Source: an uncultured Planctomycetales bacterium (lineage in GTDB: Bacteria; Omnitrophota; Gorgyraeia; Zapsychrales; Zapsychraceae). Taken from it: 46,057 nt of DNA. The notes under the pieces were generated by a model. It saw only the letters and a program-made list of their open reading frames with translations. It did not search any database and was not told the DNA's origin. The position numbers and the translations under genes were made by a program. The first letter of the stretch is position 1; the number at the start of each line of letters is the position of its first letter. Of the stretch, positions 10,720-43,598 are shown one piece after another. The stretch is taken from assembly GCA_964348765.1 (NCBI GenBank), contig CAYGEE010000003.1:1-46057 (forward strand), in the 5' to 3' direction.

Positions 10720-10728
10720 GAAACTCAT

Positions 10729-11913: not shown

Positions 11914-11985
11914 TAAAACCCTTGTCTTAAAATTATTCAAATGCTATAACTTAATTCATTCAACCATTTACAAAACTACAATAAA

Positions 11986-17070: not shown

Positions 17071-17072
17071 TC

Positions 17073-19763: not shown

Positions 19764-19774
19764 AAAAATACTCT

Positions 19775-20683: not shown

Positions 20684-20688
20684 GATTC

Positions 20689-21387: not shown

Positions 21388-21416
21388 TGTTTTTCTCTCT
21401 ATTAGGATTTTACGCT

Positions 21417-21495
21417 TGTGTCATTGCGAGCGCTTTTTGCGAAGCAATCTTTTAAAAAGATTGCTTCGGCCCAAAAACGGCCTCGCAAAGACACA
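21417..21495. repeat. Nested-palindrome repeat, copy 3 (short form)
   Basis: tgtgtcattgcgagcgctttttgcgaagcaatcttttaaaaagattgcttcggcccaaaaacggcctcgcaaagacaca. Confidence 0.9.
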
Positions 21496-21523
21496 GGACA
21501 ATATCCAAAAGTAAAAATCCCAT

Positions 21524-25782: not shown

Positions 25783-26568
25783 TTAGATGGAACCTTTAAC
25801 AAGAAATGCTGGATCAACTTTCAATTGTTCCTTAATAAGATCAAACGTATCCCGCGCGCTTATTTGTAAAACTTGCCCTTTACCGAGATCCGCGCATTTT
25901 GCAAACGACAATTCCTTGGCTTTGGTATCAAATTTCACAAAGTCCGACGCATGCGAAGGCTTTTTAAGGTCATGAACAAAATGATAAAAAGTCCGAGAAC
26001 ACTCCTGCCCGTCGATAATGGAAACCCCTGGGAAAGCCTTATCAAAACGATACGGAACTTTTAACGTTTTCTCGCAAAAATGGATCAAAGTCGATCCGGA
26101 ATCAAAATTAAAATTACAGATCTTACCACCAGCCTCAAAAAACTTCGCCCAAAATGATCCCGGCCCGAAAGAATGCTCCGGAGCATCGCTGGTAAATTCC
26201 GTCGCCCGTTTCCCAATCGCGCTTACCGAGAAATTCGCATCATCAGAACGAATCGATTGCGGGTCTTTGCGAAAACTCTCCGACAAAAAACCGCAAACGC
26301 TCATGGTCATCTTCTTATCATAGATCTGCTTATTACAAAAACTATACGTAAAAACCGGCACAACAATCGTCCCGTCGGGACCTAAGACATTTAAGATCGC
26401 GGATTTAAATAAACGATAATACTCCTGCGGTGTCGCCGCATCCTTTAATTTCCCAAAAAATCCGATATTGCTGTGAATAAAAATACTGTCGCCTTTTACA
26501 AGACCAACTTTTTGAAGACTTTTCTCAATGTCTTCCTTCGTAAAATCATAACGATCATTTGCCGGCAT
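25783..26568 (-). CDS. AAC(3)-fold N-acyltransferase (aminoglycoside N3-acetyltransferase family). Likely a sugar N-acyltransferase here.
   Basis: DSIFIHSNIGFFG...GTIVVPVFTY...TLIHFCE pattern. ATG 26568 has GAAGGT about 8 nt upstream; the track start, TTG 26583, is less likely. Confidence 0.6.
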   Translation of the reverse strand: MPANDRYDFTKEDIEKSLQKVGLVKGDSIFIHSNIGFFGKLKDAATPQEYYRLFKSAILNVLGPDGTIVVPVFTYSFCNKQIYDKKMTMSVCGFLSESFRKDPQSIRSDDANFSVSAIGKRATEFTSDAPEHSFGPGSFWAKFFEAGGKICNFNFDSGSTLIHFCEKTLKVPYRFDKAFPGVSIIDGQECSRTFYHFVHDLKKPSHASDFVKFDTKAKELSFAKCADLGKGQVLQISARDTFDLIKEQLKVDPAFLVKGSI

Positions 26569-26833
26569 TGATCTTACCTTCAATAATCGCTGTTATCCCG
26601 TCAATAGTCGCGAAACTCCGGTCCTGAAATTCATCATTCGAAAAGCGGATATCAAACTTCTCCTCAATATTCGTAATAAGCGTGACAAAACTAAAAGAAT
26701 CGATCCAACCTTTTTCCAAATAATTGATCGTCACATTCTTTTGGATCTCATTTTCCAGAACATCTGAATTCTGCACGAACCAACCGATGATCCAGCTTTT
26801 CACATTCGTCATTATCTTTTCTTTCTCGGTCAT
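26555..26833 (-). CDS. Acyl/peptidyl carrier protein
   Basis: ~92 aa from ATG 26833; the track's GTG 26848 lies in the repeat edge. Phosphopantetheine-site motif GWIDSFSFVTLI (DSx). Confidence 0.75.
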   Translation of the reverse strand: MTEKEKIMTNVKSWIIGWFVQNSDVLENEIQKNVTINYLEKGWIDSFSFVTLITNIEEKFDIRFSNDEFQDRSFATIDGITAIIEGKINAGK

Positions 26834-26847
26834 CGTTAATCTTAACA

Positions 26848-26995
26848 CCGTGTGCGAATTATTAGCTTCTGTGTCATTGCGAGCGCTTTTTGCGAAGCAA
26901 TCTTATAGAATACTCTAAAAGATTGCTTCGTCGCCTTTTACATGAAAACTTTGAAGCTCCTCGCAATGACACAAAGAGAAAAAATCGTACACGGC
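26848..26995. repeat. Nested-palindrome repeat, copy 4 (long form; core 26870..26973)
   Basis: Begins immediately after the cyclase stop codon (TAA|TGCCGTGTACGA on the minus strand) and ends at the ACP start region. Confidence 0.9.
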
Positions 26996-26996
26996 A

Positions 26997-27653
26997 TTAA
27001 TCCTTATACAAGCAAACTCTCGCCGGAGCGCCGTCCGCGCCTTTTAAGCGAAGCGGCATAATGCTGATATTCCAATCCTTATAATCGGTCAGATCATTTA
27101 AATTCGCTAAATATTCCAAAAGAACGATCTCGGCTTTCAATAAGATCTTATGGATCTTAGAATCTTCGCTCGTCCCCATCTTCGTCCGACTATCGTCGGG
27201 TGACGGTGTATCCATCCCCAAAACCCGCACCCCTTTTTCAACAAAGAGCCTGGCAGCATCTTCTGTAAAAGCCGGATAGCTGTAATAAAATTTTTCTTTA
27301 TTCCCCCAGTATTTCCCCCAGCCGAATTTAAAGACCATCCGCTCTGTAAGTGTGATCCCTTTAAGCATCTGGGCTGTTACATTCTCATATTCTTTCATAA
27401 AAGAAAAGTCAACGATCGTCACCGGCCCGATGAGCTGCGACAACGGGATCCGTTCGATACTTTTACTCCCCTTTAAAAAATGCAGCGGCGCATCGATATG
27501 TGTTCCGGTATGCGTCCCGAATGTCACTTCACGGGTCTCGCGACCTTCCACTTCGATCCGCCCCATTTGTTTGATAGTCACTTTCGGATGCCACGGCGCG
27601 TGAAAGGTGAGCATTCCTTCTTCGATGTCATACGTCAGATCAACGATTTTCAT
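26997..27653 (-). CDS. Cyclase-family metal-dependent hydrolase (kynurenine formamidase-like)
   Basis: 218 aa. HTGTHIDAPLHF equals the HxGTHxDxPxH signature. AGGAA SD upstream. Flanked on both sides by repeat copies. Confidence 0.75.
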   Translation of the reverse strand: MKIVDLTYDIEEGMLTFHAPWHPKVTIKQMGRIEVEGRETREVTFGTHTGTHIDAPLHFLKGSKSIERIPLSQLIGPVTIVDFSFMKEYENVTAQMLKGITLTERMVFKFGWGKYWGNKEKFYYSYPAFTEDAARLFVEKGVRVLGMDTPSPDDSRTKMGTSEDSKIHKILLKAEIVLLEYLANLNDLTDYKDWNISIMPLRLKGADGAPARVCLYKD

Positions 27654-27704
27654 AAGAGTTCCTATTCTTTAAAAAGTTTAGAATTTTTGCGATTGAATCA
27701 TCTC

Positions 27705-27810
27705 TGTGTCATTGCGATCCGCCACGCTTTATGGCGGAGAAGCAATCTTTTAAAAGATTGCTTCGTCACTTCTGCCTGCCGACAAGCAGGCCGTTCCTCG
27801 CAAAGACACA
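27705..27810. repeat. Nested-palindrome repeat, copy 5 (variant with extra internal hairpins)
   Basis: tgtgtcattgcgatCCGCCAcgctttaTGGCGGagaagcaatcttttaaaagattgcttcgtcacttCTGCCTGCcgacaaGCAGGCcgttcctcgcaaagacaca. Confidence 0.85.
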
Positions 27811-27828
27811 ACCGCGAAATTCTTGGAA

Positions 27829-28509
27829 TTATTTTTTTTGGCAGCTAACTAGATGCCAGTGATAATCATACCCAAAACAATCGTCGTGAATGGATCCAAA
27901 AGTAAAATCTTTAAAATACGCTGAAAAAACTTTTTTGATCTCTTTCTCATCTTTGAACATCCGCAAAATAACACCATTGCGGATCTTAAACGGGTCATTA
28001 CGGATGATCTGATATCCTTTTCTAAACTGTTCACTGTCATGGTAAATAAAACATGTTTTTTTAGGGATCGACAAAACCAGCCGGCCGTTCTTTTTCAGAA
28101 TTCTTGCAAGCTCTTTAACGTGATCATTAAAATCTTTCGATCCTCCCATGTAATAACACGCATTCCATGAAAGCACATAATCGAAAGTCTCATCTTTAAA
28201 ATCAATAGCTTCATTCGTGCTGACTTTTATGTCAGAGGAAATCCCGACCCGCCGTAAATTATCCTGCGCTTTTTGAGCGATCTGTTTTGTGATCTCGGTG
28301 CCATAAACATCAAATCCGCATTGTTTTAAAAGGACCAGATTCCGCCCATCACCGCAGCCGACATCACAAATCTTCTTTCCGGTGAAAGGATCTTTTTTCA
28401 AATTAAGTCGCGGATACGATCCTTTAAAGATCCTGATCACATATTCCGCCGGAAAAGCCATTTGACTTGACAAGATCGACTGAGTCCATTTTTTCTTTTC
28501 ATTGATCAT
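27829..28509 (-). CDS. Class I SAM-dependent methyltransferase
   Basis: Motif I ICDVGCGDGRN. I prefer ATG 28509 (7 nt after the VOC stop) to the track's TTG 28536. The start is uncertain. Confidence 0.7.
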   Translation of the reverse strand: MINEKKKWTQSILSSQMAFPAEYVIRIFKGSYPRLNLKKDPFTGKKICDVGCGDGRNLVLLKQCGFDVYGTEITKQIAQKAQDNLRRVGISSDIKVSTNEAIDFKDETFDYVLSWNACYYMGGSKDFNDHVKELARILKKNGRLVLSIPKKTCFIYHDSEQFRKGYQIIRNDPFKIRNGVILRMFKDEKEIKKVFSAYFKDFTFGSIHDDCFGYDYHWHLVSCQKK

Positions 28510-28516
28510 AACAATA

Positions 28517-29275
28517 TCATCCTTTAGCGATCCCAATGATCTCGGCGCATTCCCCGCAAGGCCCTTGCGCGAAACACACTGATAATCTCTTTTGATTGAC
28601 CTTCAGTTCTTCGATCCCAGTCACAACAAAGCCCTGAGCTTCAAGATTTTCTTTCTCACGTTCAACCGCATTGCTGATAAACGCCAAACAATTAAACCCC
28701 TGATCATCCAAATAACTTAGAGAAGAATAAGACTTATCTGATTGCAGATAAATATACAGATCTGAAGGCGATATTAAAGAACGAAACTTCAAAATAACAC
28801 CATCAAGATCTTCGCTCGCAACTTGAAATCCAAAATTCTTCCAAAACTTAACACTGGCCTTGAGATCATTCGTCTTTAAAACGACTTTATTGAACTGGAA
28901 TTTCTCCGACTCTGTAAAATACATTTCACAGTCAAGGCTTAAACATAATGCCTTCTCAAACGACTGACCACATATTTTATGCCCAGATGTTGATTTTACA
29001 AAGTCTTTTGAAAAGTTCTCAACGATCGGCGTAAATGATCCATGCTGCTCATTAACATGCCCATGATCCAGGAGCTCAACGGCGAAGCTTCCCGGATTTC
29101 TCATCAAAACCATTGTCTGTTTTTGTGAAAACCGCCGCATCAAAGACCGCTTGATCAATGGATTAGAGATCTCCGCCTCAACAAATTGATCTTGGTATCC
29201 CCAACCTTTCAGAGATCGAACTTTCTTTTCAATGTCCGTACAAGCAAAAGCCACATGATCGATCTGAAGGATCAT
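28517..29275 (-). CDS. Two-domain VOC (glyoxalase/bleomycin-resistance/dioxygenase) superfamily protein
   Basis: 252 aa. N-terminal IDHVAFACTDIEK and a second beta-alpha-beta module (VVLKTNDLKASVKFW). ATGA overlap upstream. Confidence 0.6.
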   Translation of the reverse strand: MILQIDHVAFACTDIEKKVRSLKGWGYQDQFVEAEISNPLIKRSLMRRFSQKQTMVLMRNPGSFAVELLDHGHVNEQHGSFTPIVENFSKDFVKSTSGHKICGQSFEKALCLSLDCEMYFTESEKFQFNKVVLKTNDLKASVKFWKNFGFQVASEDLDGVILKFRSLISPSDLYIYLQSDKSYSSLSYLDDQGFNCLAFISNAVEREKENLEAQGFVVTGIEELKVNQKRLSVCFAQGPCGECAEIIGIAKG

Positions 29276-30762
29276 TTCTTGACCGATTGATAATTTTGTT
29301 TAATAGCGATCTTATCTACTTTTCCATTGCGATTTTTTGGAACCTGCGCTAAAGAAATGAACTCATCAATACAATAACTTCTTCCCCACTTTTGAATGAT
29401 AAGAGAATTGATCTCCTTTTTTTTCATCTGATCAAATCCGCCGTCTTTAGCAACATAAAAACAAACGATCTTTTCACCCAGCGTCGGGTCTTGAAGCCCC
29501 AAAACCACATACTCTTCAAAGATCCGGCACGATCCTAGAAAATCCTCGATCTTCCGAGGACTAATGTTAACCCCACCGCGAATGATAAGATCTTTTTTAC
29601 GACCCGTAATCAAAAGAAAACCATCCTCTTCAACGCCTAGATCACCGGAACAATACGATTTCCCTTTAAAATACTCCACACTGGAAATATTCGAATAACC
29701 CAAAAACATCCACGGAACATTGATCAGGATCTCTGCGTCAGAATCAAAGATCAGCTCAACTCCATTTAAACGCGGCCCCACACTTGAAGTCGCCGTCACA
29801 GCTTTCGGATAATTCGTTGAAACAAAAAGCGTTTCTGATAACCCATAACTTTCATAAAGCGCGATGTGATATTTCTGCTCAAATTCCCGGCGGACATCCC
29901 CGTATAAAGGCGCTGTCCCAATGCAGGCTGTTATAGGATTTTTCTTGGCATATTCGATCCCATTCGTCCCACGGTCAATACGATTAAGTAACGACACGAT
30001 CGTTGGAACGAACCAAAACGTGTTGACCTGATAACGGATCGGCTTATCCCAAAAATTCATAGCGTGATTAACATTAAAAGCTTCACTAAGAACAACCTTA
30101 CTCCCGGAAATAAAAGGCAGAACAAATAAATTCAATATCCCCGCCATATAACTCATCGGTAAATTGTGATAGAAAACATTCTTCCCGCTAAAATGAAAGC
30201 GTTCTCGAAAACTTTCCGCGCTCAAAACAAGATTCGAAAATGAATGCATGACTCCCTTAGCTACACCCGTCGAACCGGAAGTAAACGTGATCAAAAAAAG
30301 CTTCTGGTAATCGATATCATTAAAGATCTGCAATTGATCTTTATCAGATCCCTTGATCCCAACAAAACACTGCTTAAACTCATCAACATTAACCATCCGA
30401 TCAAGAGCGCTAAACTCACCTGCCGCGATAAGGAACTTATAATCTGCCTCGAATAAGACCTCATTGATCCCGTCTTCTCCTTTATTAGGATCGATCGGAA
30501 CAGCCACAGCTCCGGCGAGCAAACAAGAAAAATATAACGAACACAATTCCAGAGAGTTAGGTAAAAGAAAACAGATCTTATCTCCGGGAACAACGCCTTT
30601 GAGCTTAAGCACATCTTTTAACTGACAAATAATGCCAAAGAACTCTCCATAAGTCACACGGCGATCTGATAGAGAATCAAAAACAAAGATCTCATTCCAA
30701 TTGTCTTGGAATACTTTGATAACAAGCTCTGAGATCCTCGAATTATTTTTCATCTTGTTCAT
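29272..30762 (-). CDS. Adenylate-forming acyl/aminoacyl-carrier-protein ligase (AMP-dependent synthetase/ligase, ANL superfamily)
   Basis: 496 aa. TFTSGSTGVAKGV (A3), YGLSET (A5), SGDLG, GRKKDLIIRGGVNISPRKIE (A8), PKNRNGKVDK (A10). Confidence 0.85.
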   Translation of the reverse strand: MNKMKNNSRISELVIKVFQDNWNEIFVFDSLSDRRVTYGEFFGIICQLKDVLKLKGVVPGDKICFLLPNSLELCSLYFSCLLAGAVAVPIDPNKGEDGINEVLFEADYKFLIAAGEFSALDRMVNVDEFKQCFVGIKGSDKDQLQIFNDIDYQKLFLITFTSGSTGVAKGVMHSFSNLVLSAESFRERFHFSGKNVFYHNLPMSYMAGILNLFVLPFISGSKVVLSEAFNVNHAMNFWDKPIRYQVNTFWFVPTIVSLLNRIDRGTNGIEYAKKNPITACIGTAPLYGDVRREFEQKYHIALYESYGLSETLFVSTNYPKAVTATSSVGPRLNGVELIFDSDAEILINVPWMFLGYSNISSVEYFKGKSYCSGDLGVEEDGFLLITGRKKDLIIRGGVNISPRKIEDFLGSCRIFEEYVVLGLQDPTLGEKIVCFYVAKDGGFDQMKKKEINSLIIQKWGRSYCIDEFISLAQVPKNRNGKVDKIAIKQNYQSVKK

Positions 30763-31804
30763 GGCCTATATATCGATAAAATCCATATTTCCCCAGGCTC
30801 ACATTCTCCCCCTTGCCCAACCTCTGAGCAAGTTCATCAAGGACCTTTTCATCAATTCTTACTTTATCGATCTTGGTGATCTCCATAATAAGGACCGCAG
30901 GATTGACTTTATATTTTGCGGAATATTTTTGAATATAATGCATGTAACTTGAATGGAATTCCGAATAACCGCTGACGATGTCCAGCGGCATTTTCCCCTT
31001 CACATCAATAAGCGGCTGAATATATTTTTGACCAGCCTCCAAAAGTTTCAGAAAATCAACTTTGATCTCATACCCTTGTTTGCTCAGCGCCGCGGTCAAT
31101 ATTTCCGTCGCGGCATTGCCGGAGCTTCTGCCCATCCCCTGCAAAGAAGAATCAACAAATCTGACTCCCAATCGCGCGGCCTCCAAACTATTAGCGATGG
31201 CAAGGCCGAGATTATCATGCCCGTGAAAACCGATCGGAAGCTTCGAGACTTTTCTGATCGCTTCAAAATAACTTCGAACATCATCCGGGAACATCCCTCC
31301 GGCGGAATCAACAATATAGACCATATCAACGCCATAACTCTCGGCGATCTTCGCTTTTTCGGCAAATTTATCCGGCGGAAGCGCGTAAGATTTCATAAAA
31401 TTTGACGCAACGAACATCCCATACTTTTTCGCTTTCTTGACAAATTCCTTTGAGGACTCTACATTCGCCACATCCGTCCCAACGCGGATAAATTTCATAT
31501 TATGATCCGCCGCCAAGTCCACATCTTCAAGACGAGCGATCCCCGGAATACAAAACATCCCATATTTCGCTTTCGTCAGCACCGATTCCGCCGCGATCAT
31601 ATATTCTTCATCCGTCTGAGCCGCCTGCCCGTGGCCTTTATTACTGGCATTTAATCCAACGCCGTGGCCGATCTCAATATATTCAAAGCCAGCGGACTCT
31701 AATTCCTTACAAATAATGGACGTGTCTGCCGACGTGAATGAAAAATTAACGGCGTAACTCCCATCGCGCAATGTTACTTCGAGGATTTCGATCTTTTTTT
31801 CCAT
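30743..31804 (-). CDS. HMGL-like aldolase (4-hydroxy-2-oxovalerate aldolase / pyruvate carboxyltransferase family)
   Basis: 353 aa. EVTLRDGSY and metal site FHGHDNLGLAIAN. AAGGA SD upstream of ATG 31804. Confidence 0.75.
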   Translation of the reverse strand: MEKKIEILEVTLRDGSYAVNFSFTSADTSIICKELESAGFEYIEIGHGVGLNASNKGHGQAAQTDEEYMIAAESVLTKAKYGMFCIPGIARLEDVDLAADHNMKFIRVGTDVANVESSKEFVKKAKKYGMFVASNFMKSYALPPDKFAEKAKIAESYGVDMVYIVDSAGGMFPDDVRSYFEAIRKVSKLPIGFHGHDNLGLAIANSLEAARLGVRFVDSSLQGMGRSSGNAATEILTAALSKQGYEIKVDFLKLLEAGQKYIQPLIDVKGKMPLDIVSGYSEFHSSYMHYIQKYSAKYKVNPAVLIMEITKIDKVRIDEKVLDELAQRLGKGENVSLGKYGFYRYIGHEQDEK

Positions 31805-31831: not shown

Positions 31832-34342
31832 TTAATTGGAATGGAACAGATCAATAACATTTTCACTCCCAAAATCCCTTCGATATCTTTCGTTCGCATT
31901 TTTCATCGCTTCTTTTTTACTTTTCCCATTGTTTAATTCATCGAATACAGTCTTAACATATTGACCTAACCGACGATAAGACTTGCCATCCCTGTAAGGA
32001 TCGATCTGATCTAAAAACGGGGAATAATCAGCAAACCCTTGAGTGTCTTTGGAGTGATCACGAAATTTCCGGATCTCGGACATTAACGATGCGGCATCAT
32101 CAAAAACGACCGTTCCTCGTCCTTGTTTATAAAGGGAATGAAAATCCATTCTTCCATAATTGACCGTAACCGTCGGGATCCCGGCAAGCGCGGCTTCGAG
32201 TGCTGCCGTATTAAAAATATAAAATCCAACAACCAGATCAGAGATCTTAGCCGCTGCGCTAGGAAGGATCTTCTCATCCAAAAAAACACACCGCCCGGTT
32301 CGCTCGGCTTTTTCGATCAGATCCTTAATATCAGCCAACTCCTTCGAATAATAATTCTTTCGTTTTGGTTTAATAACCATTCCTAACGTAGGATCAGCCT
32401 CTAACTCTTTTAACAAAGCATGATAAATATCTTCAAATTCCTTTTTCACAAAACAATCGTGCGGATTATAAACTTCGTCAAAAAAACAAATAATGAAATT
32501 CACCCCCTTAGATCTAAGATCTTTTTGAATATCCTGAAGCCTCGCATCCGTTTTCTTAAACGCGTGATCATGCGGATATCCCAAATAAAGCAAATGGTCG
32601 ATCGAATAATAATCACGTTCAAAAAGCCTTCGATATGCCGGACCCCACGCAAAATAAGCATCGAACGGCTTCCCATGCCCGACCCAAAGTTCGGGATAAT
32701 TCGACCAATTATGACTAATATTAACCGCCCCGGCTAAACTAGCACCCAAGTTGGATGCTGTTAATTGCTCTCCATCCAGTAATGATAAATGGACCTTCAC
32801 TTTTTGATCCGTAAAAACAGCCTCATAAAAACAAATGTGATATAACAATCCCGCTAAATGCTGTAACTCCCATATTCTCGTCGATTTCAAACCAGAAAAG
32901 ATCGCTCCGACGGATAATTTAAGAACCTCAATACAAATGCCACCAAGTGATTTCACATACGACCAAGATGCATAAACATACAATTCAGGCGATCCCAAAC
33001 CTAAGAACTTTTTACTAAATCGCTTGGGGATCAGATCGATCCAATCAATATGATAACTTCTTAAAAGAGCATCGATCTCTGAGGTGATTGGCCGGTAAGG
33101 AACACGCGCGTAAACCAACATTTCTTCCGGTTTCAATCCAGAATCCGGATACCAAAAGAAATCAGATTTCCCATTGAGATCCACGCCCTGAACATAAAGC
33201 ACAGCAACTTTCGATTGCGAACTTTGCTTCTTCCGTTTACCGACGATCATCTTCCAAAAAGATCCCGCGAGATTTACAAAGAACGCAACGACGATCCGGA
33301 TCAGATGAAAGAACAATGTGAACCAACTTTTCACATTCGGATAAAAAGACAATTCCACTTTTTTATAAAACGATCTTTGAACATATTTCGCCCAAGCATA
33401 ATTTCGGGTCAAAATAATATTCCCTAAAGTCCCCGGCATCTTTTGACGCTGAGTCCACTCCAGTGTTTTAGCCAAAGTCGTCAGCCCCCGAACCTCATGA
33501 TAGATCACCTGCTGTAAATAGATCCTTACGGCTTTCTTACCGAGATCATATTTTTGACTTAACCAATCAACCAAACTATCCTGAAAATACCCTTCGGCAA
33601 CGACCGCGAAAGATGCATCCTCAGCGTCAGAATATTTTTTCCAAAAAGGAACAGCTTTCTCATTAACAAGTCCGGACATCTTTTTATAATCAGCAAGCTC
33701 CAAACGGAATTTTATATTCACCCGAAACAATGAGATCAAAACTTTTCCCATCGCCGTTATTGTCAAATACTTAATACACGTGATCTTTCGTTCTCTTCCC
33801 AATAAGAAGATCCACAACAAGGAGAATATGCCCAGATCATCAACCCAACAAGTATATGCTGTTTCAGGTCGAGAATCTGCCGGTGAACTCAGCTCAAGGA
33901 CAAGACAATCCGCTCCTTGGATATTTAATTCAGAGATCGTTTGAAAACCTGCTTTTTCAAAAAGCCGTATAGAAGCCTCATTGCCTTTTTTGATCTGCGC
34001 GCGGATCTTTTTAATGGGTGCATTTTGAAAAACAAAGGCGCACATTTTTGTTAAACCCTCGCCTGCAAACCCTTGCGAACGTTTTTCCGGGGAAATAGAA
34101 ATACTCACAAGCGCGCTAGATTCACTATCAAAGTCAAATCTAAGTTGACCGACGGAAACGTCATCGCTAAGCAAAATAAATATCCAACATTTCGGATCAC
34201 TTAATTTTCGCGTAAACCATTGTAAATGGTCTTCAAAGACAATGATCTCTTTGTTAAGAGAATTTTCCCGGGATTGCGGATCATTTCTCCAATGAAAGAT
34301 ATCCCGAGCATCTTTTTCTGTCGCACGTCGAAATGACAGCAT
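31832..34342 (-). CDS. Fusion protein: N-terminal PseH-like GNAT N-acetyltransferase (~150 aa) plus a ~650-aa uncharacterised GT-B-like domain
   Basis: 836 aa, a single frame with no internal stop. N-terminus FRRATEKDARDIFHWRNDP...RSQGFAGEGL...LFEKAGF is GNAT/PseH-like. The C-terminal part shows NISHNW and LVVGFYIFNTAALEAALAGIPTV (nucleotide-sugar GT-B-like). TAATG junction with pseI. Confidence 0.6.
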   Translation of the reverse strand: MLSFRRATEKDARDIFHWRNDPQSRENSLNKEIIVFEDHLQWFTRKLSDPKCWIFILLSDDVSVGQLRFDFDSESSALVSISISPEKRSQGFAGEGLTKMCAFVFQNAPIKKIRAQIKKGNEASIRLFEKAGFQTISELNIQGADCLVLELSSPADSRPETAYTCWVDDLGIFSLLWIFLLGRERKITCIKYLTITAMGKVLISLFRVNIKFRLELADYKKMSGLVNEKAVPFWKKYSDAEDASFAVVAEGYFQDSLVDWLSQKYDLGKKAVRIYLQQVIYHEVRGLTTLAKTLEWTQRQKMPGTLGNIILTRNYAWAKYVQRSFYKKVELSFYPNVKSWFTLFFHLIRIVVAFFVNLAGSFWKMIVGKRKKQSSQSKVAVLYVQGVDLNGKSDFFWYPDSGLKPEEMLVYARVPYRPITSEIDALLRSYHIDWIDLIPKRFSKKFLGLGSPELYVYASWSYVKSLGGICIEVLKLSVGAIFSGLKSTRIWELQHLAGLLYHICFYEAVFTDQKVKVHLSLLDGEQLTASNLGASLAGAVNISHNWSNYPELWVGHGKPFDAYFAWGPAYRRLFERDYYSIDHLLYLGYPHDHAFKKTDARLQDIQKDLRSKGVNFIICFFDEVYNPHDCFVKKEFEDIYHALLKELEADPTLGMVIKPKRKNYYSKELADIKDLIEKAERTGRCVFLDEKILPSAAAKISDLVVGFYIFNTAALEAALAGIPTVTVNYGRMDFHSLYKQGRGTVVFDDAASLMSEIRKFRDHSKDTQGFADYSPFLDQIDPYRDGKSYRRLGQYVKTVFDELNNGKSKKEAMKNANERYRRDFGSENVIDLFHSN

Positions 34343-35388
34343 TAAACATCCCCTTGACGGATCGGATGATCCTGTAAAATACTTCTTTTCGCTTTCTTCC
34401 CAAGGATCTGATCGTAATAAACCGGATCAAGTCCGGGCTTTAATATCCCGTTCCTTAATATCTCAATGTCATCTTTTGTTATGATCTGACCCTTCGTGAT
34501 TACTCTAATGGCAAAAAGAGATCTGCGAGCGAAACTTCGCAAATCTTTTTCAACCGAATGAAAATCTTTTTTCCCTGTTCCTAAAACTTTCTCAACATCA
34601 CGGATCTTTTGAACCATCAATTTCAATTCATGCGGCTCGATTGCATATTTATGATCCGGACCCGACAAACCATTGGAAAGCGTAAAATGTTTTTCAATAC
34701 AACAGGCACCCACCGCGACAGCCGCCATCGGAGCGACATCATAAGCCCTCGAATGATCAGAAAGCCCGACGGGCAAATGAAATTCTTTTTTCATCGTTTG
34801 GATCGTATTAATATTGATCGATTCCAACGGGGCGGGATAGCATGCAGTGCACTGCATTAAGATCAGATCCCTATTCCCAACGGCTCTGATCGCTTGAACT
34901 GTTTTCCCAACTTCATCTAAATGAGCCGTGCCCGTCGATAAAATAATCGGCTTGCCTTTCTTGGCAACATGCTCAACTAACGGAATATCCGTCATCTCAT
35001 AAGAGGAGATCTTAAAAAGCGGCATATGTTTCTCAAGAATATCAGCGGAATCATTATCAAAAGGCGTCGATAAGAACATGATCTTCTTTTTCTTGCAGTA
35101 TTGCGCAAGTTTCGGGATCCACTCGACGGGCATTTCCATATCTTTAATGATCTCATAGATCGATTTCTTATCTTTTAAATACCGAGCATGCCCTGCCTTT
35201 TTGGTATAGATCTTATGTGCTTTGAATGTTTGGAATTTAACCGCATCCGCTTTCGCATCAGAAGCCACATCAATAAGAGCCAATGCCTGTTTAAAGTCTC
35301 CATCATGATTACTTCCCGCCTCGGCGATCACAAAACAAGGCGCGCCATCACCGATGAAACGTTTTCCGATCTTGATCTTCATAGTCAT
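34342..35388 (-). CDS. pseI: Pseudaminic acid synthase (NeuB family nonulosonate synthase with C-terminal SAF domain)
   Basis: 348 aa. FVIAEAGSNHDGDFKQALALIDVA...AVKFQTF. Specificity is inferred from the adjacent pseG/pseH/pseB/pseC. Confidence 0.75.
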   Translation of the reverse strand: MTMKIKIGKRFIGDGAPCFVIAEAGSNHDGDFKQALALIDVASDAKADAVKFQTFKAHKIYTKKAGHARYLKDKKSIYEIIKDMEMPVEWIPKLAQYCKKKKIMFLSTPFDNDSADILEKHMPLFKISSYEMTDIPLVEHVAKKGKPIILSTGTAHLDEVGKTVQAIRAVGNRDLILMQCTACYPAPLESININTIQTMKKEFHLPVGLSDHSRAYDVAPMAAVAVGACCIEKHFTLSNGLSGPDHKYAIEPHELKLMVQKIRDVEKVLGTGKKDFHSVEKDLRSFARRSLFAIRVITKGQIITKDDIEILRNGILKPGLDPVYYDQILGKKAKRSILQDHPIRQGDV

Positions 35389-35391
35389 CTC

Positions 35392-36420
35392 TTATGAAAT
35401 TGATCCCACTGTTTTAATAACTTTAGAAACACCTGCGCCATCACAGACCCCGGAAGAAACTTGGCTCATTTGTGCCAATTGAACGTCTGTTAACGAAACA
35501 AGGATCTTTGCCAACTGCTCTTTGCTGGTATCCCGAAACCATCCGGCATTGATCGCCGCGCCTGTCTTGGCCAAACTATCAACAACACCCCGCTGATTCT
35601 CCGCGATCGGCATTAAAACCATCGGCAGCTTCATCGTCGCCATTTCCCAACTGACAGAGCCGCCCGAACCGATCGCAAGATCCGCACATAGCATCACATC
35701 CGCCAAATGATCAAGGTCCTGATGGATCACAACATCCCTACCGCTATTTTTCACTTCCTGTTCCAATGATCTACGATGCGGATATGCTCCTCCGATCACG
35801 ATCTGAATTTTAATCGAACGTCTTAAAGAACAAGCCGCATGAAAAACTTTTAATGTCTGATTATCTTGATCACCGCCGCCCATAAAGATCAAGACATTGC
35901 TCAATTCTTTCCGGATCAACGCATTCTGCCGGCGCTGTTGATAAATCTTGCGGACCAATGCATATTGAGGACCTAGCAATTGAACTGTCTTGGGCAGGCA
36001 CTCATATTTCAGATCTAACGCATGAATATTCTGATTCAATAAAATATTAACCGGAAATCTTGTGTGATTAATGTCATCGATCGCCAAGATCTTTACAGAA
36101 TGTTTCCCTAAAAAGGAATAATAATCCTCCTTGATCCCATAATGATCCACAATGATCCATTGCGGCTTTCTCTCTTTGATCAATGATCCAACAAAAATCT
36201 TCTCCTGCTCAAACGGTTCGATCTTAGGGATCAAAACAAACCCGCACCCCGCATCCTTGATCCGTTTGACCAGCACATTATTAAGTTCGCGACACAAAAA
36301 AACAACGTCATAACCTTCCAACTTTAATTCCTGCGCCAATGTCAATGAACGGAGGATATGCCCAATACCGATCGCCGTTGATCCGTCGGCACGGACAAAG
36401 ACCAAAGGATCCCTTTTCAC
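35392..36420 (-). CDS. pseG: UDP-2,4-diacetamido-2,4,6-trideoxy-beta-L-altropyranose hydrolase
   Basis: 342 aa. FVRADGSTAIGIGHILRSLTLAQEL and FMGGGDQDN are hallmarks of PseG. GTG start in a GTGA overlap with the upstream stop. Confidence 0.8.
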   Translation of the reverse strand: MKRDPLVFVRADGSTAIGIGHILRSLTLAQELKLEGYDVVFLCRELNNVLVKRIKDAGCGFVLIPKIEPFEQEKIFVGSLIKERKPQWIIVDHYGIKEDYYSFLGKHSVKILAIDDINHTRFPVNILLNQNIHALDLKYECLPKTVQLLGPQYALVRKIYQQRRQNALIRKELSNVLIFMGGGDQDNQTLKVFHAACSLRRSIKIQIVIGGAYPHRRSLEQEVKNSGRDVVIHQDLDHLADVMLCADLAIGSGGSVSWEMATMKLPMVLMPIAENQRGVVDSLAKTGAAINAGWFRDTSKEQLAKILVSLTDVQLAQMSQVSSGVCDGAGVSKVIKTVGSIS

Positions 36421-37205
36421 TTTAAACCCCGATGGCTTTCTTTACTACTTCGCTGCTTGATCATACAATTTATTTCAAATAATTCGGGCCACTTTTTCAG
36501 CAGACCAATGATCTCTCTTAAAAAGAAATCATGTTTGCCTCGGTATAATTCCCGATAAACCTCTTTAAGGAATTGATAATCTTCCGGAGTATCCAAAGTA
36601 AAACGCAAGTGAGAATAATTTTCCTTATTTTTTAAATAGTAAATATCTTTTTTGTAATGTTCATAAATAAATGGGGTCACATGCTCGTGCTGGTAAGGTT
36701 TTTTAGCTTTCCGGAATGCGTTTTGAAGGACATCATATCCAAAAACCTCCGCATCGAATCCCCACGGATACCCGCACTCCATTTTCTTCGGCCCGCTGTT
36801 AGTGGCAAGAGGAACATTATGATCTTTAAAATATCGGATAATGTCGTCAATAACATACGGATCAATACACGGACTGTCCCCGGAAACGCGAACGATCGAC
36901 CCACAGGAAAAAAGCTCCGAAGCATCCGCAAAACGCTTCAAAACATCTTCCTCGCTACCCCGAAAACATTTGACACGGATATTCTGACAAAGACGCTCAA
37001 TGGGATCGTTTCGTTTATCTGTCCCTGTTGTCACGACGATCTCATTGATCATTCTCGACAACCGCAGCCGTTCGACAATGTGCTCAAGAACAGGCTTATC
37101 GATCAAATTCTTGACAACTTTCCCCGGCAGCCGGCGCGAGCCGATCCGCGCCTGGATAAGGCAGAGAACATTTTCTTTACTTCGCGTCAGAGGCATCACC
37201 ATCAC
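36417..37205 (-). CDS. pseF: SpsF/PseF-type cytidylyltransferase (probable CMP-pseudaminic acid synthetase)
   Basis: LIQARIGSRRLPGKV signature. Possible starts are GTG 37205, ATG 37202 and ATG 37196 (AGGTGA upstream of the last). Confidence 0.6.
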   Translation of the reverse strand: MMVMPLTRSKENVLCLIQARIGSRRLPGKVVKNLIDKPVLEHIVERLRLSRMINEIVVTTGTDKRNDPIERLCQNIRVKCFRGSEEDVLKRFADASELFSCGSIVRVSGDSPCIDPYVIDDIIRYFKDHNVPLATNSGPKKMECGYPWGFDAEVFGYDVLQNAFRKAKKPYQHEHVTPFIYEHYKKDIYYLKNKENYSHLRFTLDTPEDYQFLKEVYRELYRGKHDFFLREIIGLLKKWPELFEINCMIKQRSSKESHRGLK

Positions 37206-38771: not shown

Positions 38772-39659
38772 TTATCTCCATTGACGCGGATCGACGATCT
38801 TCGGATCATCCGCTTTGACCGCCGAGAAATTAATGTACTTGATTTTAGATCGAAACTCCGGGACCATCTTGATCATTGCCAACTGCTCTTTTAAATGTTC
38901 AAGCCGATCAACCCCAACAACGAGCGCATCAATATTTTTAAGTGTGTAGACATACAAAAATGCTAATTCTTTTTTTGAAACTCCCAACATCTTGGCAAGA
39001 CTTTCAAGCTTATCCAAATAATTCCCCGCTTTTTTAAGATTTTTTGGCAAATGATGACGATCCAACGTCACAAGCCCCTGCAAAAAAACACTGCGAGCGT
39101 ATACTTTCTTTCCAGATCGTTTCAACCGATCGATCGATCCATCTTCCAAAAGCCTTTGATCAAGAATACTGACCGGGCATTGGATCACATCAAAATCAAA
39201 ATCTTTTAAAAGCTTATCGATCTGGCCACGATCATAAACCGATACACCAATTTGACCGATCAGTTTAGTTCTCTTCAATTCTATTAATGTTCTTAAAATG
39301 ATACGCTGCTTATCCTTAAAAACATCCAAAACATTATGGATCATATAACAATCGATCCTCTTCTGACGCAAACGCTGTAACGATGCTTCAAATTGATCAA
39401 AGATCTGCTGACGTGAAACTTGCCCTTTCAATGCGGAAAGTTTCGTCGTGATCTTAATCTGTCTTTTTCTTTTAATTAAGAACCGTCCGATCAGATCCTC
39501 ACTTGATCCGTACGCGGCAGCCGTATCAAAACGGTCCACGCCGTTCTTTAACGCTGTGTCAAAGATCCCGAACGCCTCTTTTTCCGACGGTTGTCCGCTC
39601 TTATTTGCGATCCCGTAAGGCATTCCGATTTGCGCTGTTCCTAAAACTAATCTATTCAT
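38772..39659 (-). CDS. Aldo/keto reductase family oxidoreductase
   Basis: 295 aa. LGTAQIG.PYG, FDTAAAYG and the K/H pattern of AKRs. Stop/start share one base with pseC (TGATG). Confidence 0.75.
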   Translation of the reverse strand: MNRLVLGTAQIGMPYGIANKSGQPSEKEAFGIFDTALKNGVDRFDTAAAYGSSEDLIGRFLIKRKRQIKITTKLSALKGQVSRQQIFDQFEASLQRLRQKRIDCYMIHNVLDVFKDKQRIILRTLIELKRTKLIGQIGVSVYDRGQIDKLLKDFDFDVIQCPVSILDQRLLEDGSIDRLKRSGKKVYARSVFLQGLVTLDRHHLPKNLKKAGNYLDKLESLAKMLGVSKKELAFLYVYTLKNIDALVVGVDRLEHLKEQLAMIKMVPEFRSKIKYINFSAVKADDPKIVDPRQWR

Positions 39660-41781: not shown

Positions 41782-41810
41782 CGTTATTTCCTCTCTGATC
41801 ATTACAACTG

Positions 41811-43598
41811 TTAAACGGTGTATAAATTAAAATAGGCGCTTTTATTCTCCAATAATTGCGTGTGAGTCCCCTCTTCCATAACCTTACCCTTTTCCAAAAC
41901 AATGATCTTATCGGCATTCTGGATCGTTGAAAGCCGATGCGCGACAATAAGGATCGTCGTATGCGCCGCGACACGATTAATAGCCTCTTGAACCGCACGC
42001 TCGGAAACGTTATCCAAAGAACTTGTCGCCTCGTCGAGGATCAGGATCTGCGGCTTACGGAGCATCGCGCGCGCGATCGCGAGGCGCTGTCTTTGCCCTC
42101 CGGAGATTTTCATACCGGAATCGCCGACGATCGTATCATAGCCGTTTTCTGACGCGGAAATAAATTCATGCGCGTTCGCCAGCTTCGAGGCTTCAACGAT
42201 CTCGTCAAAAGTCGCTCTTGTCCCAAACTCAATATTTTCCCGGATCGTCCCGTTAAAAACAAAACTTTCTTGGCTAACATAACCGATCTTTCCCAGATAC
42301 GATTCCCGAGATATTTCTTTAATATTCTCCCCATCAATGGCGATCGCGCCTTTGCCTACTTCATACAAGCGAAGCAACAGATTAATAATCGTTGTTTTTC
42401 CTGATCCCGAAGGGCCGACGATCGCGGTAATCTTTCGTTTTTCGATCCTTAGATTAAGATCTTTGAGTAAGAATTCTTCTGCCGCCTCATGTTTGAACCA
42501 CACATTATTAAAAACAACATCGCGCGCAAATTCTTTCAATTCTTTCTTTCCGTTCCAAAACGACTGCACGCTCACGGGCTCGTTTAATAGGTCATAAACG
42601 ATCCGAACATCCGGTGTAAAACGCGCGATCGAAACGATATCCCCTCCAACTAAATTCATATAAGGAAACAAGCGGCTGGCAACCGTTGAAAATGTTGCCA
42701 AAAGCGGCAAGAAAGGCAAAATATTGCTGTGTTGTCCGATACTCACAACGATCCCCAGGATCGCAAAGATCATAAAGAAAGCAAATTTCACAAAAACATC
42801 CGGAACGATCCGTCCCATATTCACTTTGAAATTCAGATAAGTACTTTTACTCGTCGCAGAATCAAACTTCTTCCTCCAAAATGATTCACTTAAGAATATT
42901 TTGATCGACTTGATACCGGTGATAAATTCATTAAGGATCACATTTTTATGACGGTCTTCATCCACCGCCTGGCGCGCGGATTTATTCACAATATCCGATG
43001 TGAGTTTTCGGATGACAATAACATACAATAGCCCAATGAATCCAACGAGAAGCGTCCCCTGCCAGGAAAGGATAACAAGGACAACGGAAAAGAACGCAAC
43101 GTTAACAACGCTGTAAATGATCCGCATCAGATAAAAAAGATTATTCGAAACACCCATCGGTGCAATAGTACTGGCATAGATAAGTTTGCCTTGCTGATTC
43201 TTGACGAAAAAAGAATAATCCGAGTTCTTATATTTATCAAAGATCGCCATCTGATTTTGATAAACGACCTCACGGATCAATTGATTGGACAGATAATGCT
43301 GCCAGATCCTGACGACCGCCGAAATAACCGTCAGCGCAATTAAAAGCACGCACGAAGAAATGAATAAATTCTCACCAGGGATCATCCGAACAATATTCCC
43401 CAAAAACTGCAAACCGGGATGATTATCTTTGAGCTCTAATCCATAATTGATGATCGGGTAGATCGCCATAAGGTTCAATGACTCAAAAACCCCGGCAAGA
43501 AGCATCGTCACAAAAACAAAGAAAACTTTTTGCTCGTGACCTTTAAGAAAGTAACGAAACGTCTTAAAATCTATCGTAGGGATCTTTATCTCTGACAT
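41811..43598 (-). CDS. ABC exporter, fused permease + ATPase (MsbA/PglK-like)
   Basis: 595 aa. Six-TM N-terminal half, Walker A GPSGSGKTT, signature ISGGQRQRLAIARA, Walker B ILILDEATSSLD. Confidence 0.85.
   Translation of the reverse strand: MSEIKIPTIDFKTFRYFLKGHEQKVFFVFVTMLLAGVFESLNLMAIYPIINYGLELKDNHPGLQFLGNIVRMIPGENLFISSCVLLIALTVISAVVRIWQHYLSNQLIREVVYQNQMAIFDKYKNSDYSFFVKNQQGKLIYASTIAPMGVSNNLFYLMRIIYSVVNVAFFSVVLVILSWQGTLLVGFIGLLYVIVIRKLTSDIVNKSARQAVDEDRHKNVILNEFITGIKSIKIFLSESFWRKKFDSATSKSTYLNFKVNMGRIVPDVFVKFAFFMIFAILGIVVSIGQHSNILPFLPLLATFSTVASRLFPYMNLVGGDIVSIARFTPDVRIVYDLLNEPVSVQSFWNGKKELKEFARDVVFNNVWFKHEAAEEFLLKDLNLRIEKRKITAIVGPSGSGKTTIINLLLRLYEVGKGAIAIDGENIKEISRESYLGKIGYVSQESFVFNGTIRENIEFGTRATFDEIVEASKLANAHEFISASENGYDTIVGDSGMKISGGQRQRLAIARAMLRKPQILILDEATSSLDNVSERAVQEAINRVAAHTTILIVAHRLSTIQNADKIIVLEKGKVMEEGTHTQLLENKSAYFNLYTV

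Follow-up and report, generated by a model that had tools for sequence, protein, structure and literature searches.

The window analysed here (the whole stretch of DNA, 46,057 nucleotides) contains a set of pse genes that form an operon-like array with the target, a gene that codes for an 836-aa protein with an N-terminal GNAT domain and a large C-terminal module (31832..34342, minus strand, stop codon included). Upstream of the target and on the same strand are genes for a NeuB/PseI-type nonulosonic acid synthase (34342..35388; 372 bits with TIGR03569 and 312 bits with TIGR03586, both slightly under the cutoffs), for the UDP-sugar hydrolase PseG, as a separate gene (35392..36420; TIGR03590, 244 bits, above the 153.55 cutoff), for a cytidylyltransferase that is a candidate CMP-Pse synthetase (36417..37205; weak KdsB/PseF-like matches), and for PseC (39659-40807; TIGR03588, 497 bits) and PseB (40810-41802; TIGR03589, 500 bits), both above their cutoffs. 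An MsbA/PglK-like ABC exporter is encoded at 41811..43598 (minus strand), and it recurs adjacent to the module in related loci L001 and L015. Since the Pse pathway is otherwise complete in the window, its biosynthetic steps do not require the module. The possibility that the module was a divergent PseG was rejected: a bona fide PseG is encoded in the window and in loci L002, L019, and L020, and the module had no match to the PseG model (TIGR03590).

The window also contains a likely CDP-alditol TarI/TarJ-like set (15988-22579; two Zn-dependent dehydrogenases, two NTP_transferases, and a ribulose-phosphate 3-epimerase), CDP-glucose genes, and a gene for a second large GT-B-like protein (o677); no Glyphos_transf protein was found in it. 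The large Pfam-negative ORFs 7043-9076, 13838-15991, and 22582-24477 showed no BLASTP similarity to the module; two of them resemble polytopic membrane proteins. Maf and KpsS-type transferases are covered by Maf- and Capsule_synth-type Pfam families, and no domain of these types was detected in the ORFs of at least 150 aa that were scanned against Pfam; ORFs from 26997 upward, except the target and 28517-29275, were scanned with NCBIfam only, and all of them matched unrelated families.

The target is a single uninterrupted 836-codon ORF whose ATG overlaps by one base with the stop codon (TAA) of the NeuB/PseI-type gene that precedes it (TAATG). GNAT similarity ends at about residue 152 and module similarity begins at about residue 163, in the identical frame. 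Between them lies a linker of about ten residues (SPADSRPETA, approximately residues 153-162; 33857..33886, minus strand), preceded by DCLVLELS, the final strand of the GNAT, and followed by CWVDDLG, the earliest conserved motif of the module. The exact 836-aa protein is known from one contig only, and there are relatives in which the GNAT and the module are encoded by separate, neighbouring genes, as would be expected if an assembly or sequencing artefact had joined two separate genes. However, such an origin is hardly credible. A frameshift artefact is very unlikely because both domains share one frame, the junction contains no homopolymer and both other frames are closed there, no in-frame ATG, GTG, or TTG that could start a separate module occurs between residues 120 and 174, and the architecture recurs in a protein of an unrelated assembly (P0109, see below). 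Standalone module homologues begin 5-25 residues ahead of the CWVDxLG motif. Base composition is also uniform over the junction. After inspection of the junction sequence, frames, and start codons, a homopolymer or frameshift origin was rejected, and the in-frame fusion of a GNAT to a large domain, as put forward in the original prediction, was confirmed as a genuine two-domain fusion. In the full-length AF2 model, residues 151-157 of the linker region had a pLDDT below 50, and the GNAT half reached only 30-55 since just two sequences cover it; this model carries no information on domain packing.

The N-terminal GNAT (residues 1-152; 33887..34342, minus strand) matched GNAT Pfam models over residues 2-137 (Acetyltransf_3, E=1.5e-15). 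Its top NCBIfam match was PseH (TIGR03585, 57.0 bits, residues 3-137), and its top PDB match was C. jejuni PseH (Cj1313, 4xpk; E=1.7e-7), with which it shares the GNAT fold, an N-terminal WRN (residues 18-20), and an acetyl-CoA-type RxxGxA motif (RSQGFAG, residues 88-94). It is encoded among pseB, pseC, pseG, and a pseI-type synthase gene, but as the N-terminal domain of an 836-aa protein, whereas PseH is a standalone enzyme of ~160-180 aa. It is 33% identical to the standalone GNAT that adjoins the closest module homologue. The first ~150 aa had been predicted to be PseH-like: the best matches agree with this, but the score does not reach the TIGR03585 equivalog cutoff (93.1 bits), so that its identity as PseH is probable and not established. 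It had also been regarded as the only PseH candidate, and by tblastn no further PseH-like GNAT was found in the window, although an AAC(3)-family N-acetyltransferase is encoded at 25783-26583. The GNAT would carry out the PseH step, an acyl-CoA-dependent N-acetylation (or a related N-acylation), with the 4-amino group of UDP-4-amino-4,6-dideoxy-beta-L-AltNAc as its putative substrate.

The C-terminal module (residues 163-836, ~674 aa; 31835..33856, minus strand) is predicted to adopt a GT-B glycosyltransferase-type fold with long helical insertions, in agreement with the large uncharacterised GT-B-like domain proposed originally, and it has no Pfam match. Its AF2 model had a pLDDT of 91.7 and a pTM of 0.91, and 188 matches in the PDB were obtained with Foldseek at E<=1e-3; the best 50 of them were all GT-B proteins. 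The matches included UDP-GlcNAc 2-epimerases, GT4 enzymes, SPY, TarL, and TagF (E ~1e-8), and TM scores, normalised to target length, reached 0.65. PDB sequence searches with the module and with the module profile returned nothing significant. The pattern previously described as nucleotide-sugar glycosyltransferase-like, LVVGFYIFNTAALEAALAGIPTV, is present at residues 703-725, but only weak, sub-threshold family matches were found there: Glyco_trans_1_2 (PF13524, E=3e-3; 17.8 bits, gathering threshold 25), which matched in only 1/40 family members, and the BFO_1060 family (E=9e-5). Both matches cover the conserved D702...G706...E716...G721 stretch (DLVVGFYIFNTAALEAALAGIPTV; 32168..32239, minus strand), a nucleotide-binding element in the strand-loop-helix form that GT-B C-terminal domains typically have.

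Three further features of the module were analysed. A hydrophobic helix, WFTLFFHLIRIVVAFFVNLAGSFWKMIVG, followed by KRKK (residues 340-368; 33239..33325, minus strand; Kyte-Doolittle peak 2.04) forms a long helix in the model and is similarly hydrophobic in homologues; it is a possible membrane-association element. A VIKPKRK motif (32357..32377, minus strand), conserved among 113 members (K658 in 96% and P659 in 88%), sits after a beta-strand in the C-terminal Rossmann half and occupies what we take to be the position of the HP motif in CMP-sugar GT-B enzymes. No conserved His-Pro was found in the module family, and the position is occupied by K658-P659-K660 (88-96% of members). Hhalign set VIKPKRK opposite the RPHP of the o677 family, with a probability of only 5%, a hint of motif position and not of homology. 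D622-E623 is followed by V and not G, and thus the module has neither the HP nor the D/E-D/E-G motif of the sialyltransferase-type set listed in PMC5420450, from which the HP comparison was partly drawn. Finally, there is a family-specific C-terminal motif, IDPYRDGKSYRRLG (31964..32005, minus strand), in which D781, D785, and R791 are invariant or nearly so.

The module is not peculiar to one gene. Word-indexed searches with the full protein, the module, and a 40-sequence profile found the protein itself and one other (P0002) only, and the family was found by exhaustive search alone: phmmer identified 1,521 representatives at E<=1e-3 (clusters at 50% identity). None of 40 members tested had a Pfam match, there is no Pfam model for the family, and its members are annotated only as "hypothetical protein." The module is almost always standalone: GNAT fusions account for 2 of the best 151 representatives, and another member has an APS kinase as its N-terminal fusion partner. 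Weak similarity to the BFO_1060 family was found in 7/40 members (best E=6e-6), over ~100 residues at the end of the C-terminal Rossmann half, and distant similarity to TIGR04417 in 8/40 and to TIGR04396 in 5/40 (best E=2e-11); the window protein matched neither of these two models at E<=0.01. In the literature we found no description of the module family or of a GNAT/GT-B module fusion, and no characterisation of TIGR04396 or TIGR04417.

The same architecture was sought in other genomes and found in P0109, an 862-aa protein from an independent assembly that is 23% identical to the window protein, aligns with its residues 17-830, and has a GNAT that scores 111 bits with the PseH model, above the 93.1 cutoff. 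The two GNAT fusions fall in different subclades of the module tree, and the nearest relatives of each are unfused. Scanning contigs with an alignment of eight sequences (A2) revealed four genome loci and five metagenome loci. A GNAT adjoins or is fused to the module in at least four loci. In one of the unfused cases (L020), an Acetyltransf_3-type GNAT gene lies directly downstream of the module after a 27-bp gap, with PseH as best match (65 bits); in another (L022), an Acetyltransf_3-type GNAT, assigned by its Pfam label and weak similarity to the P0109 GNAT, lies upstream and overlaps the called start of the module. Most loci (L002/L019, L012, L015, and L016) lack a GNAT. A CMP-sugar-type cytidylyltransferase (CTP_transf_3) is encoded within 10 kb of the module in 10/11 independent loci, directly adjacent to it in L001 and L016-18, and a NeuB-family synthase within 10 kb in 7/11; in L012, PseI is directly upstream. 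The family occurs in Pse-type and Leg-type clusters alike, and in the latter the N-acetyltransferase is a hexapeptide-repeat protein.

Fold and gene context point to a glycan-transfer or polymerase activity for the module, most likely that of a CMP-nonulosonic-acid (Pse-derivative) transferase. We give an even chance to the proposal that the ORF codes for a two-domain enzyme of a Pse glycan pathway in which a PseH-like GNAT is joined to such a transferase on the membrane. The putative transferase would act at the cytoplasmic face, where a lipid-linked glycan would receive the completed nonulosonic acid (a derivative of Pse) from its CMP-activated form; the ABC exporter encoded nearby would then carry this glycan outward. 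The unbroken ORF, the assignment of the domains to fold and family, the recurring architecture, and the association with neighbouring genes are shown, whereas the PseH substrate, the CMP-sugar donor, the membrane association, and the acceptor are the parts of this proposal that we infer. The link to CMP-nonulosonic acids is suggested by the CTP_transf_3/NeuB neighbourhood, by the occurrence in both cluster types, and by the weak BFO_1060 and TIGR04396 similarity. Against a CMP-sugar donor, the best 50 of 188 fold matches are UDP-, GDP-, ADP-, or CDP-dependent enzymes and not CMP-sugar transferases, and K-P-K replaces the HP motif; against Tannerella-type kinship, the BFO_1060 similarity amounts to 22 vs 200 bits over ~100 residues only; against a general PseH link, most family members have no GNAT nearby; and against assigning the donor, the window also encodes the likely CDP-alditol set and o677.

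PseH catalyzes step 3 of the pathway, and CMP-Pse is formed only after PseG, PseI, and the cytidylyltransferase have also acted. A Pse transferase therefore cannot receive its substrate directly from PseH, and pathway logic does not support the earlier idea that the fusion couples monomer synthesis to its use. Since the GNAT and the transferase are three steps apart, their fusion would fix their stoichiometry or bring them together in an assembly complex, and would not serve direct substrate hand-over. The APS kinase partner of the other member likewise suggests that the fusions reflect co-expression or complex formation in one glycan pathway and not successive reactions. Somewhat below even confidence, we also propose that the module founds a new GT-B family (K-P-K for HP, invariant C-terminal DPxRDG...R) for transfer or polymerisation of Pse- and Leg-type nonulosonic acids in Planctomycetota, Omnitrophota, and other uncultured bacteria, and that it is the hub of a membrane-associated assembly complex with repeated independent fusions (PseH at least twice, APS kinase once).

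The GNAT could instead be another N-acyltransferase, acting on the nonulosonic acid or glycan with a non-acetyl group or re-acylating it after de-N-acetylation, and not the housekeeping PseH; the GT-B module could remain the transferase in that case. Its score under the PseH cutoff would fit this, as would the acyl-CoA ligase, DltC/ACP-like carrier (26555-26848), HMGL-like aldolase, and methyltransferases of the cluster, the PIG-L-type de-N-acetylase that precedes P0109, the ACP, KAS III, and MaoC genes of related loci, and the AAC(3)-family enzyme, which could do the acetylation instead. However, PseH is the best match both in NCBIfam and in the PDB, the P0109 GNAT exceeds the PseH cutoff, and without the GNAT domain the window would have PseB, PseC, PseG, and a PseI-type synthase but no PseH-type enzyme, so that we regard this alternative as unlikely, though of some weight.

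Two other explanations concern the donor of the module. The domains might catalyze consecutive steps, with the module using a UDP-sugar fed by the GNAT (e.g., the PseH product UDP-2,4-diacetamido-2,4,6-trideoxy-beta-L-altrose) or another NDP-sugar. UDP-dependent GT-B enzymes are its closest structural neighbours among those listed, PseG, the known fusion partner of PseH, uses the PseH product (PMC7874193), and a GNAT is adjacent or fused in at least four loci. We nevertheless consider this improbable: most loci have no GNAT, the CMP-sugar-type cytidylyltransferase is a near-universal neighbour, Leg-type clusters contain the family together with a hexapeptide-repeat N-acetyltransferase, the APS kinase fusion implies that an N-terminal partner need not perform the preceding reaction, and the dedicated PseG would compete for the same substrate. 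Slightly more improbable is a TagF/TarL-like role for the module, as a phosphotransferase or polymerase that adds alditol-phosphate or sugar-phosphate units from a CDP-activated donor, and not as a nonulosonic-acid transferase. The fold matches include TarL (8va1) and TagF (3l7m), which have helical regions and a GT-B core in common with it, a TagB-like character was noted for the Tannerella transferases too (PMC5420450), and the window has the TarI/TarJ-like set and CDP-glucose genes without a Glyphos_transf protein; but TarL ranks only 32 and TagF only 43, none of the 40 members tested matched Pfam Glyphos_transf, and no CDP-alditol-type genes were seen in module loci L015, L016, L019, and L020.

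To our knowledge, few transferases are known that act on pseudaminic acid, legionaminic acid, or their nonulosonic-acid relatives: Maf, FlmG, KpsS1/GT118, and the Tannerella enzymes. Knowledge of them was described as scarce in a 2017 Tannerella study (PMC5420450). The target ORF and P0109 can be read as a "Rosetta stone" that links the Pse pathway to a family of GT-B proteins that has no annotation and comprises at least 1,500 clusters (50% identity), and gene context links this family more broadly to CMP-sugar synthetases and NeuB-type synthases. The family is thus a good candidate for a new nonulosonic-acid transferase family in uncultured bacteria, a concrete and testable one for glycobiologists, in environmental phyla in which surface glycans have hardly been studied; the annotation of thousands of "hypothetical proteins" would improve. 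The fusion itself is an ordinary type of event in glycan clusters and implies no new chemistry.

The original prediction knew of no described fusion of this type. None was found published for this GNAT/module pair, but in a PseG-PseH chimera of Aeromonas caviae Sch3N, for which PMC7874193 cites Tabei et al. (2009), a PseH-type acetyltransferase is also joined to a GT-B-fold domain in a Pse locus. The partner there is PseG, a UDP-sugar hydrolase of ~300 aa that catalyzes the very next step; here, PseG is separate and the partner is the ~674-aa module, which does not match the PseG model. Fusion of PseH to a GT-B-fold protein is thus an already known theme, and only the partner is new. TagF and TarL share with the module a GT-B core with helical regions and represent a cytoplasmic-face, membrane-associated enzyme type with a cytidine-nucleotide-activated donor; the similarity is at fold level only (10-11% identity), the module lacks a Glyphos_transf match, and the context of its family is nonulosonic acid and not CDP-alditol. 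KpsS1 (GT118), Maf, and FlmG transfer Pse from CMP-Pse, the function proposed for the module. The lack of a Pfam domain in the module argues, by way of the Pfam coverage of these proteins, against its membership in the Maf and KpsS-type families. KpsS1 is related to the retaining enzymes KpsS, KpsC, and WbbB (PMC12887879), and none of these was among the best 50 of the 188 fold matches.

The Tannerella forsythia proteins Tanf_01245, TFUB4_00887, and BFO_1060 (NF046086) were genetically shown to be transferases of Pse or Leg derivatives; like the module, they are GT-B/TagB-like and encoded beside CMP-Pse or CMP-Leg biosynthesis genes (PMC5420450). They have ~445 aa and the DXD, D/E-D/E-G, and HP motifs (PMC5420450), whereas the module has ~674 aa, long helical insertions, and K-P-K at the HP position, and it scores 21.7-22.2 bits with NF046086 (model positions 261-364 of 365), below the cutoff of 200. 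The PFTS-motif polysaccharide biosynthesis protein (TIGR04417) and surface carbohydrate biosynthesis protein (TIGR04396) families resemble the module in being uncharacterised and located in surface-glycan loci, and in Herbaspirillum a TIGR04396-named protein adjoins neuABC (PMC6679464).

The target gene (31832-34342, minus strand) is a single ORF of 836 codons located in a long minus-strand gene array that comprises, in this order, genes for a MarR-type regulator, CDP-glucose genes, and genes for an MsbA/PglK-like ABC exporter (41811-43598), PseB (500 bits), PseC (497 bits), an aldo-keto reductase, an SDR, a methyltransferase, a cytidylyltransferase (36417-37205), PseG (244 bits), a NeuB/PseI-type synthase, and the target. 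The ATG of the target shares one base with the TAA of the upstream NeuB/PseI-type gene (TAATG), and this suggests translational coupling. GNAT Pfam models match residues 2-137 of the product (Acetyltransf_3, E=1.5e-15). The top NCBIfam model for this domain is PseH (TIGR03585), with 57 bits against a curated cutoff of 93.1 bits, and among solved structures C. jejuni PseH comes closest (4xpk, E=1.7e-7). The GNAT domain is thus probably PseH, as originally predicted, being closest to PseH in both comparisons, but it fails the curated cutoff. No second PseH-like GNAT was found in the window, and with its pse gene set the Pse pathway is complete, provided that this domain is PseH.

GNAT similarity reaches approximately residue 152, where the last strand (DCLVLELS) aligns with two other PseH-like GNATs. 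Similarity to the C-terminal family of ~674 aa (residues 163-836; hereafter the module) begins at about residue 163 (CWVDDLG), in the same frame and past a linker of ~10 residues. The junction contains no homopolymer and both other reading frames are closed there. Since no in-frame ATG, GTG, or TTG was found at residues 120-174, and standalone module homologues start 5-25 residues ahead of the CWVDxLG motif, the target module has no possible start codon of its own. The same architecture was found in P0109 (862 aa), encoded in an unrelated assembly, which aligned over query residues 17-830 of the target with 23% identity, showed GNAT Pfam matches at residues 19-142, and scored 111 bits with its GNAT against the PseH model, over the cutoff. 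The homologue search recovered the exact target protein from this contig only, which would fit an artefactual fusion; in view of the shared frame, the junction, the missing module start, and P0109, we consider an artefact very improbable. The observation of one ORF holding both domains in frame was therefore upheld, while the interpretation placed on it found only partial support.

A word-indexed search retrieved a single distant relative of the module, P0002 (693 aa; its residue 9 aligns to target residue 167), so the module also exists as a standalone protein. By exhaustive search, 1,521 family representatives (clusters at 50% identity) were obtained at E<=1e-3, 385 of them at E<=1e-30; almost all have lengths of 650-720 aa, and the match begins within their first ~30 residues. 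Except for one sub-threshold case, no Pfam family matched any of 40 members, and nothing was found with the module profile among PDB sequences. Source records label these proteins "hypothetical protein" or leave them nameless. An AlphaFold2 model built from a 40-sequence alignment (pLDDT 91.7, pTM 0.91) gave 188 Foldseek matches in the PDB at E<=1e-3, the best ones being UDP-GlcNAc 2-epimerases (MnaA, NeuC, and WecB), the GT4 enzyme HepE, SPY, trehalose-6-phosphate synthases, TarL, and TagF, at 10-15% identity and with TM-scores, normalised to target length, of 0.65 or less. The confident model and these matches indicate that the module is a GT-B-fold protein with long helical insertions that lies outside any solved or modelled family. 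The glycosyltransferase-like character ascribed to the C-terminal part was in this way borne out at the level of the modelled fold, and sequence tests placed it in no known GT family: the string on which it had been based (residues 703-725) falls within weak matches to Glyco_trans_1_2 (E=3e-3) and to "BFO_1060 family glycosyltransferase" (E=9e-5). Residues conserved across 113 full-length members (836-aa numbering) are W397, S547, F564, G588, D592, D622, K658-P659, R684, D702, E716, G721, F747, D781, D785, and R791. Residues 340-368 form a strongly hydrophobic helix followed by KRKK, a conserved character, and may anchor the enzyme to the membrane.

Genomic context was analyzed in 11 independent loci with sizeable flanks (the window and L002, L003, L004, L005, L008, L009, L015, L016, L019, and L020, on other contigs), leaving out near-identical duplicates. 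A CTP_transf_3 cytidylyltransferase gene (KdsB/NeuA/PseF type) lies within 10 kb of the module in 10 of the 11 and adjoins it directly in L016-18, as it does in L001, a short contig not among the 11. NeuB-family synthase genes were located within 10 kb in seven loci, and in the short contig L012 the gap between the PseI end and the module is 2 bp. The clusters holding the module are of Pse type (PseB/C/G/I) in the window, L002, L019, and L020, and of Leg type in L016 (NeuB, NeuC-like epimerase, hexapeptide acetyltransferase, DegT, and Polysacc_synt_2 dehydratase). An MsbA/PglK-like ABC exporter often adjoins the module (L001 and L015) or sits nearby. The closest loci, of Planctomycetales type, encode between PseI and the module a conserved protein of ~270 aa that matched neither Pfam nor NCBIfam (L002 9141-9950, L019 9185-9997, and L006 ~270-1080), in the place of the window's GNAT domain. 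In L002 (3144-5237) and L019 (3312-5363), a class-III aminotransferase is also joined to a CTP_transf_3 cytidylyltransferase, a further pathway-enzyme fusion in related Pse clusters.

Downstream of the target, region 25783-31804 (minus strand) contains likely tailoring genes: those for an HMGL-like aldolase, an AMP-forming acyl-CoA ligase, and a glyoxalase-like protein, followed by a methyltransferase and a cyclase/arylformamidase-like protein, a 97-aa DltC/ACP-like carrier (26555-26848), and, at the end, an AAC(3)-family N-acetyltransferase and a DUF4910 protein. L002 and L019 share the last two with the window and also carry ACP, KAS III, MaoC, and FkbH-like genes; the aldolase reappears in L015, and a B12-radical-SAM gene is present in L002, L015, and L019. 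This set suggests a Pse derivative with unusual N-acylation or C-methylation. Farther downstream, region 15988-22579 (minus strand) resembles a TarI/TarJ-type CDP-alditol pathway, with two Zn-dependent alcohol dehydrogenases, two NTP_transferase genes, a ribulose-phosphate 3-epimerase, a xylose-isomerase-like TIM-barrel protein, and a GT2-GtrA fusion; the window lacks a Glyphos_transf-type transferase. Two proteins of 717 and 631 aa without Pfam match (13838-15991 and 22582-24477, minus strand) look polytopic by eye, with numerous hydrophobic stretches plus a soluble C-terminal part, and could be GT-C-like transferases or polymerases/ligases for the same glycan. The sole plus-strand island (9331-13179) encodes an MBOAT O-acyltransferase, a 394-aa unknown protein, and a GT2 enzyme; the first two types reappear beside the module in L010. 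Two additional CTP_transf_3 cytidylyltransferases and o677, a second large protein without Pfam family, are also encoded in this downstream part.

Distant NCBIfam similarity was detected in the module family to TIGR04417 (8/40 members), BFO_1060 (7/40), and TIGR04396 (5/40). Strain 92A2 carries BFO_1060 as its orthologue of Tanf_01245/TFUB4_00887; when the latter genes are deleted, the T. forsythia O-glycan loses its terminal Pse or Leg derivative (PMC5420450). A protein named after TIGR04396 adjoins neuABC in Herbaspirillum (PMC6679464). Given the gene context and these similarities, the most economical reading, a wholly contextual one to which we give about an even chance, is that the module would transfer CMP-activated nonulosonic acids on the cytoplasmic side, and that ABC-dependent export would follow. 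Against such a transferase, K-P-K stands where sialyltransferases have HP, the BFO_1060 similarity is tiny (22 bits versus a cutoff of 200), the structural neighbours listed depend on UDP-, GDP-, ADP-, or CDP-donors, and the window has CDP-alditol-type genes and another candidate transferase, o677. The latter (677 aa; 7043-9076, with 5421-6925, both minus strand) contains the motifs RPHP and SYSSTCIEEAL, similar to the HP motif of sialyltransferases or KpsS-type proteins, and gave only a weak Epimerase_2 match. It is 42-50% identical to proteins of Omnitrophota and Planctomycetales loci and often co-occurs with the module (L003, L004, L005, L009, and L015). A CT251-type CTP_transf_3 gene (~70% identical to that of the window) directly follows its relative in L004, L005, L009, and L015, with a CT250-type copy (58-69% identical) also downstream in L004 and L015. 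Probably, o677 is a second CMP-sugar transferase.

Among the 151 best representatives, only the target and P0109 have a GNAT-sized N-terminal surplus (155 and 169 aa, respectively). In the P0101 cluster an APS kinase precedes the core module instead, so the module accepts varied N-terminal partners. P0101 is encoded in the Leg-type cluster L016 (10001-12217), where a second, unfused paralogue of 581 aa also occurs (14220-15965), and the same fusion is found in L017 and L018. The ATP sulfurylase and sulfotransferase genes beside it suggest that these clusters make sulfated nonulosonic-acid glycans. A neighbour-joining tree of 113 modules put the two GNAT fusions into separate subclades, and the nearest, unfused relatives of each have an Acetyltransf_3-type GNAT gene directly beside the module: 27 bp downstream in L020 (module 44% identical; GNAT best matching PseH at 65 bits and 33% identical to that of the window) and immediately upstream in L022, overlapping the called start of the module (42% identical to that of P0109). 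It therefore seems likelier that two fusions arose independently than that a single ancient one was lost many times, and this argues for a real functional partnership between PseH-type GNATs and the module. As for its nature, PseG, PseI, and PseF act between the PseH product and CMP-Pse, and the APS kinase fusion, too, unites activities that are not consecutive; it is thus unlikely that substrate is channelled to a Pse transferase, and the proposal that the fusion couples monomer synthesis to its use was not sustained. Should the module take the UDP-sugar product of PseH directly, the fusion would join consecutive steps, in parallel with the known PseG-PseH chimeras of Aeromonas caviae (PMC7874193); we regard this as improbable. 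A benefit through co-stoichiometry, or through recruitment into a membrane-proximal assembly complex, appears more plausible.

When compared with known systems, the module belongs to the GT-B superfamily by fold, resembles TagF/TarL at fold level only, and did not qualify for BFO_1060, PseG, any Pfam GT family, or the motif-defined sialyltransferases. Known Pse transferases include Maf and FlmG. KpsS1 (GT118) is another one (PMC12887879). No similarity of the module to Maf, FlmG, or KpsS1 was detected, its lack of Pfam domains speaking against membership in the Maf and KpsS types, and among known Pse transferases the Tannerella protein BFO_1060 alone resembles it, weakly. In agreement with the original remark that no described fusion of this type was known to its author, the literature search found no account of the GNAT-module fusion or of the module family. 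Glycan clusters commonly contain such fusions, and the pairing of a PseH-type domain with a GT-B enzyme is already known; what is new is the unnamed and very large partner family. The fusion provides a clear functional handle on this "dark" family, which may represent a new class of nonulosonic-acid transferases.
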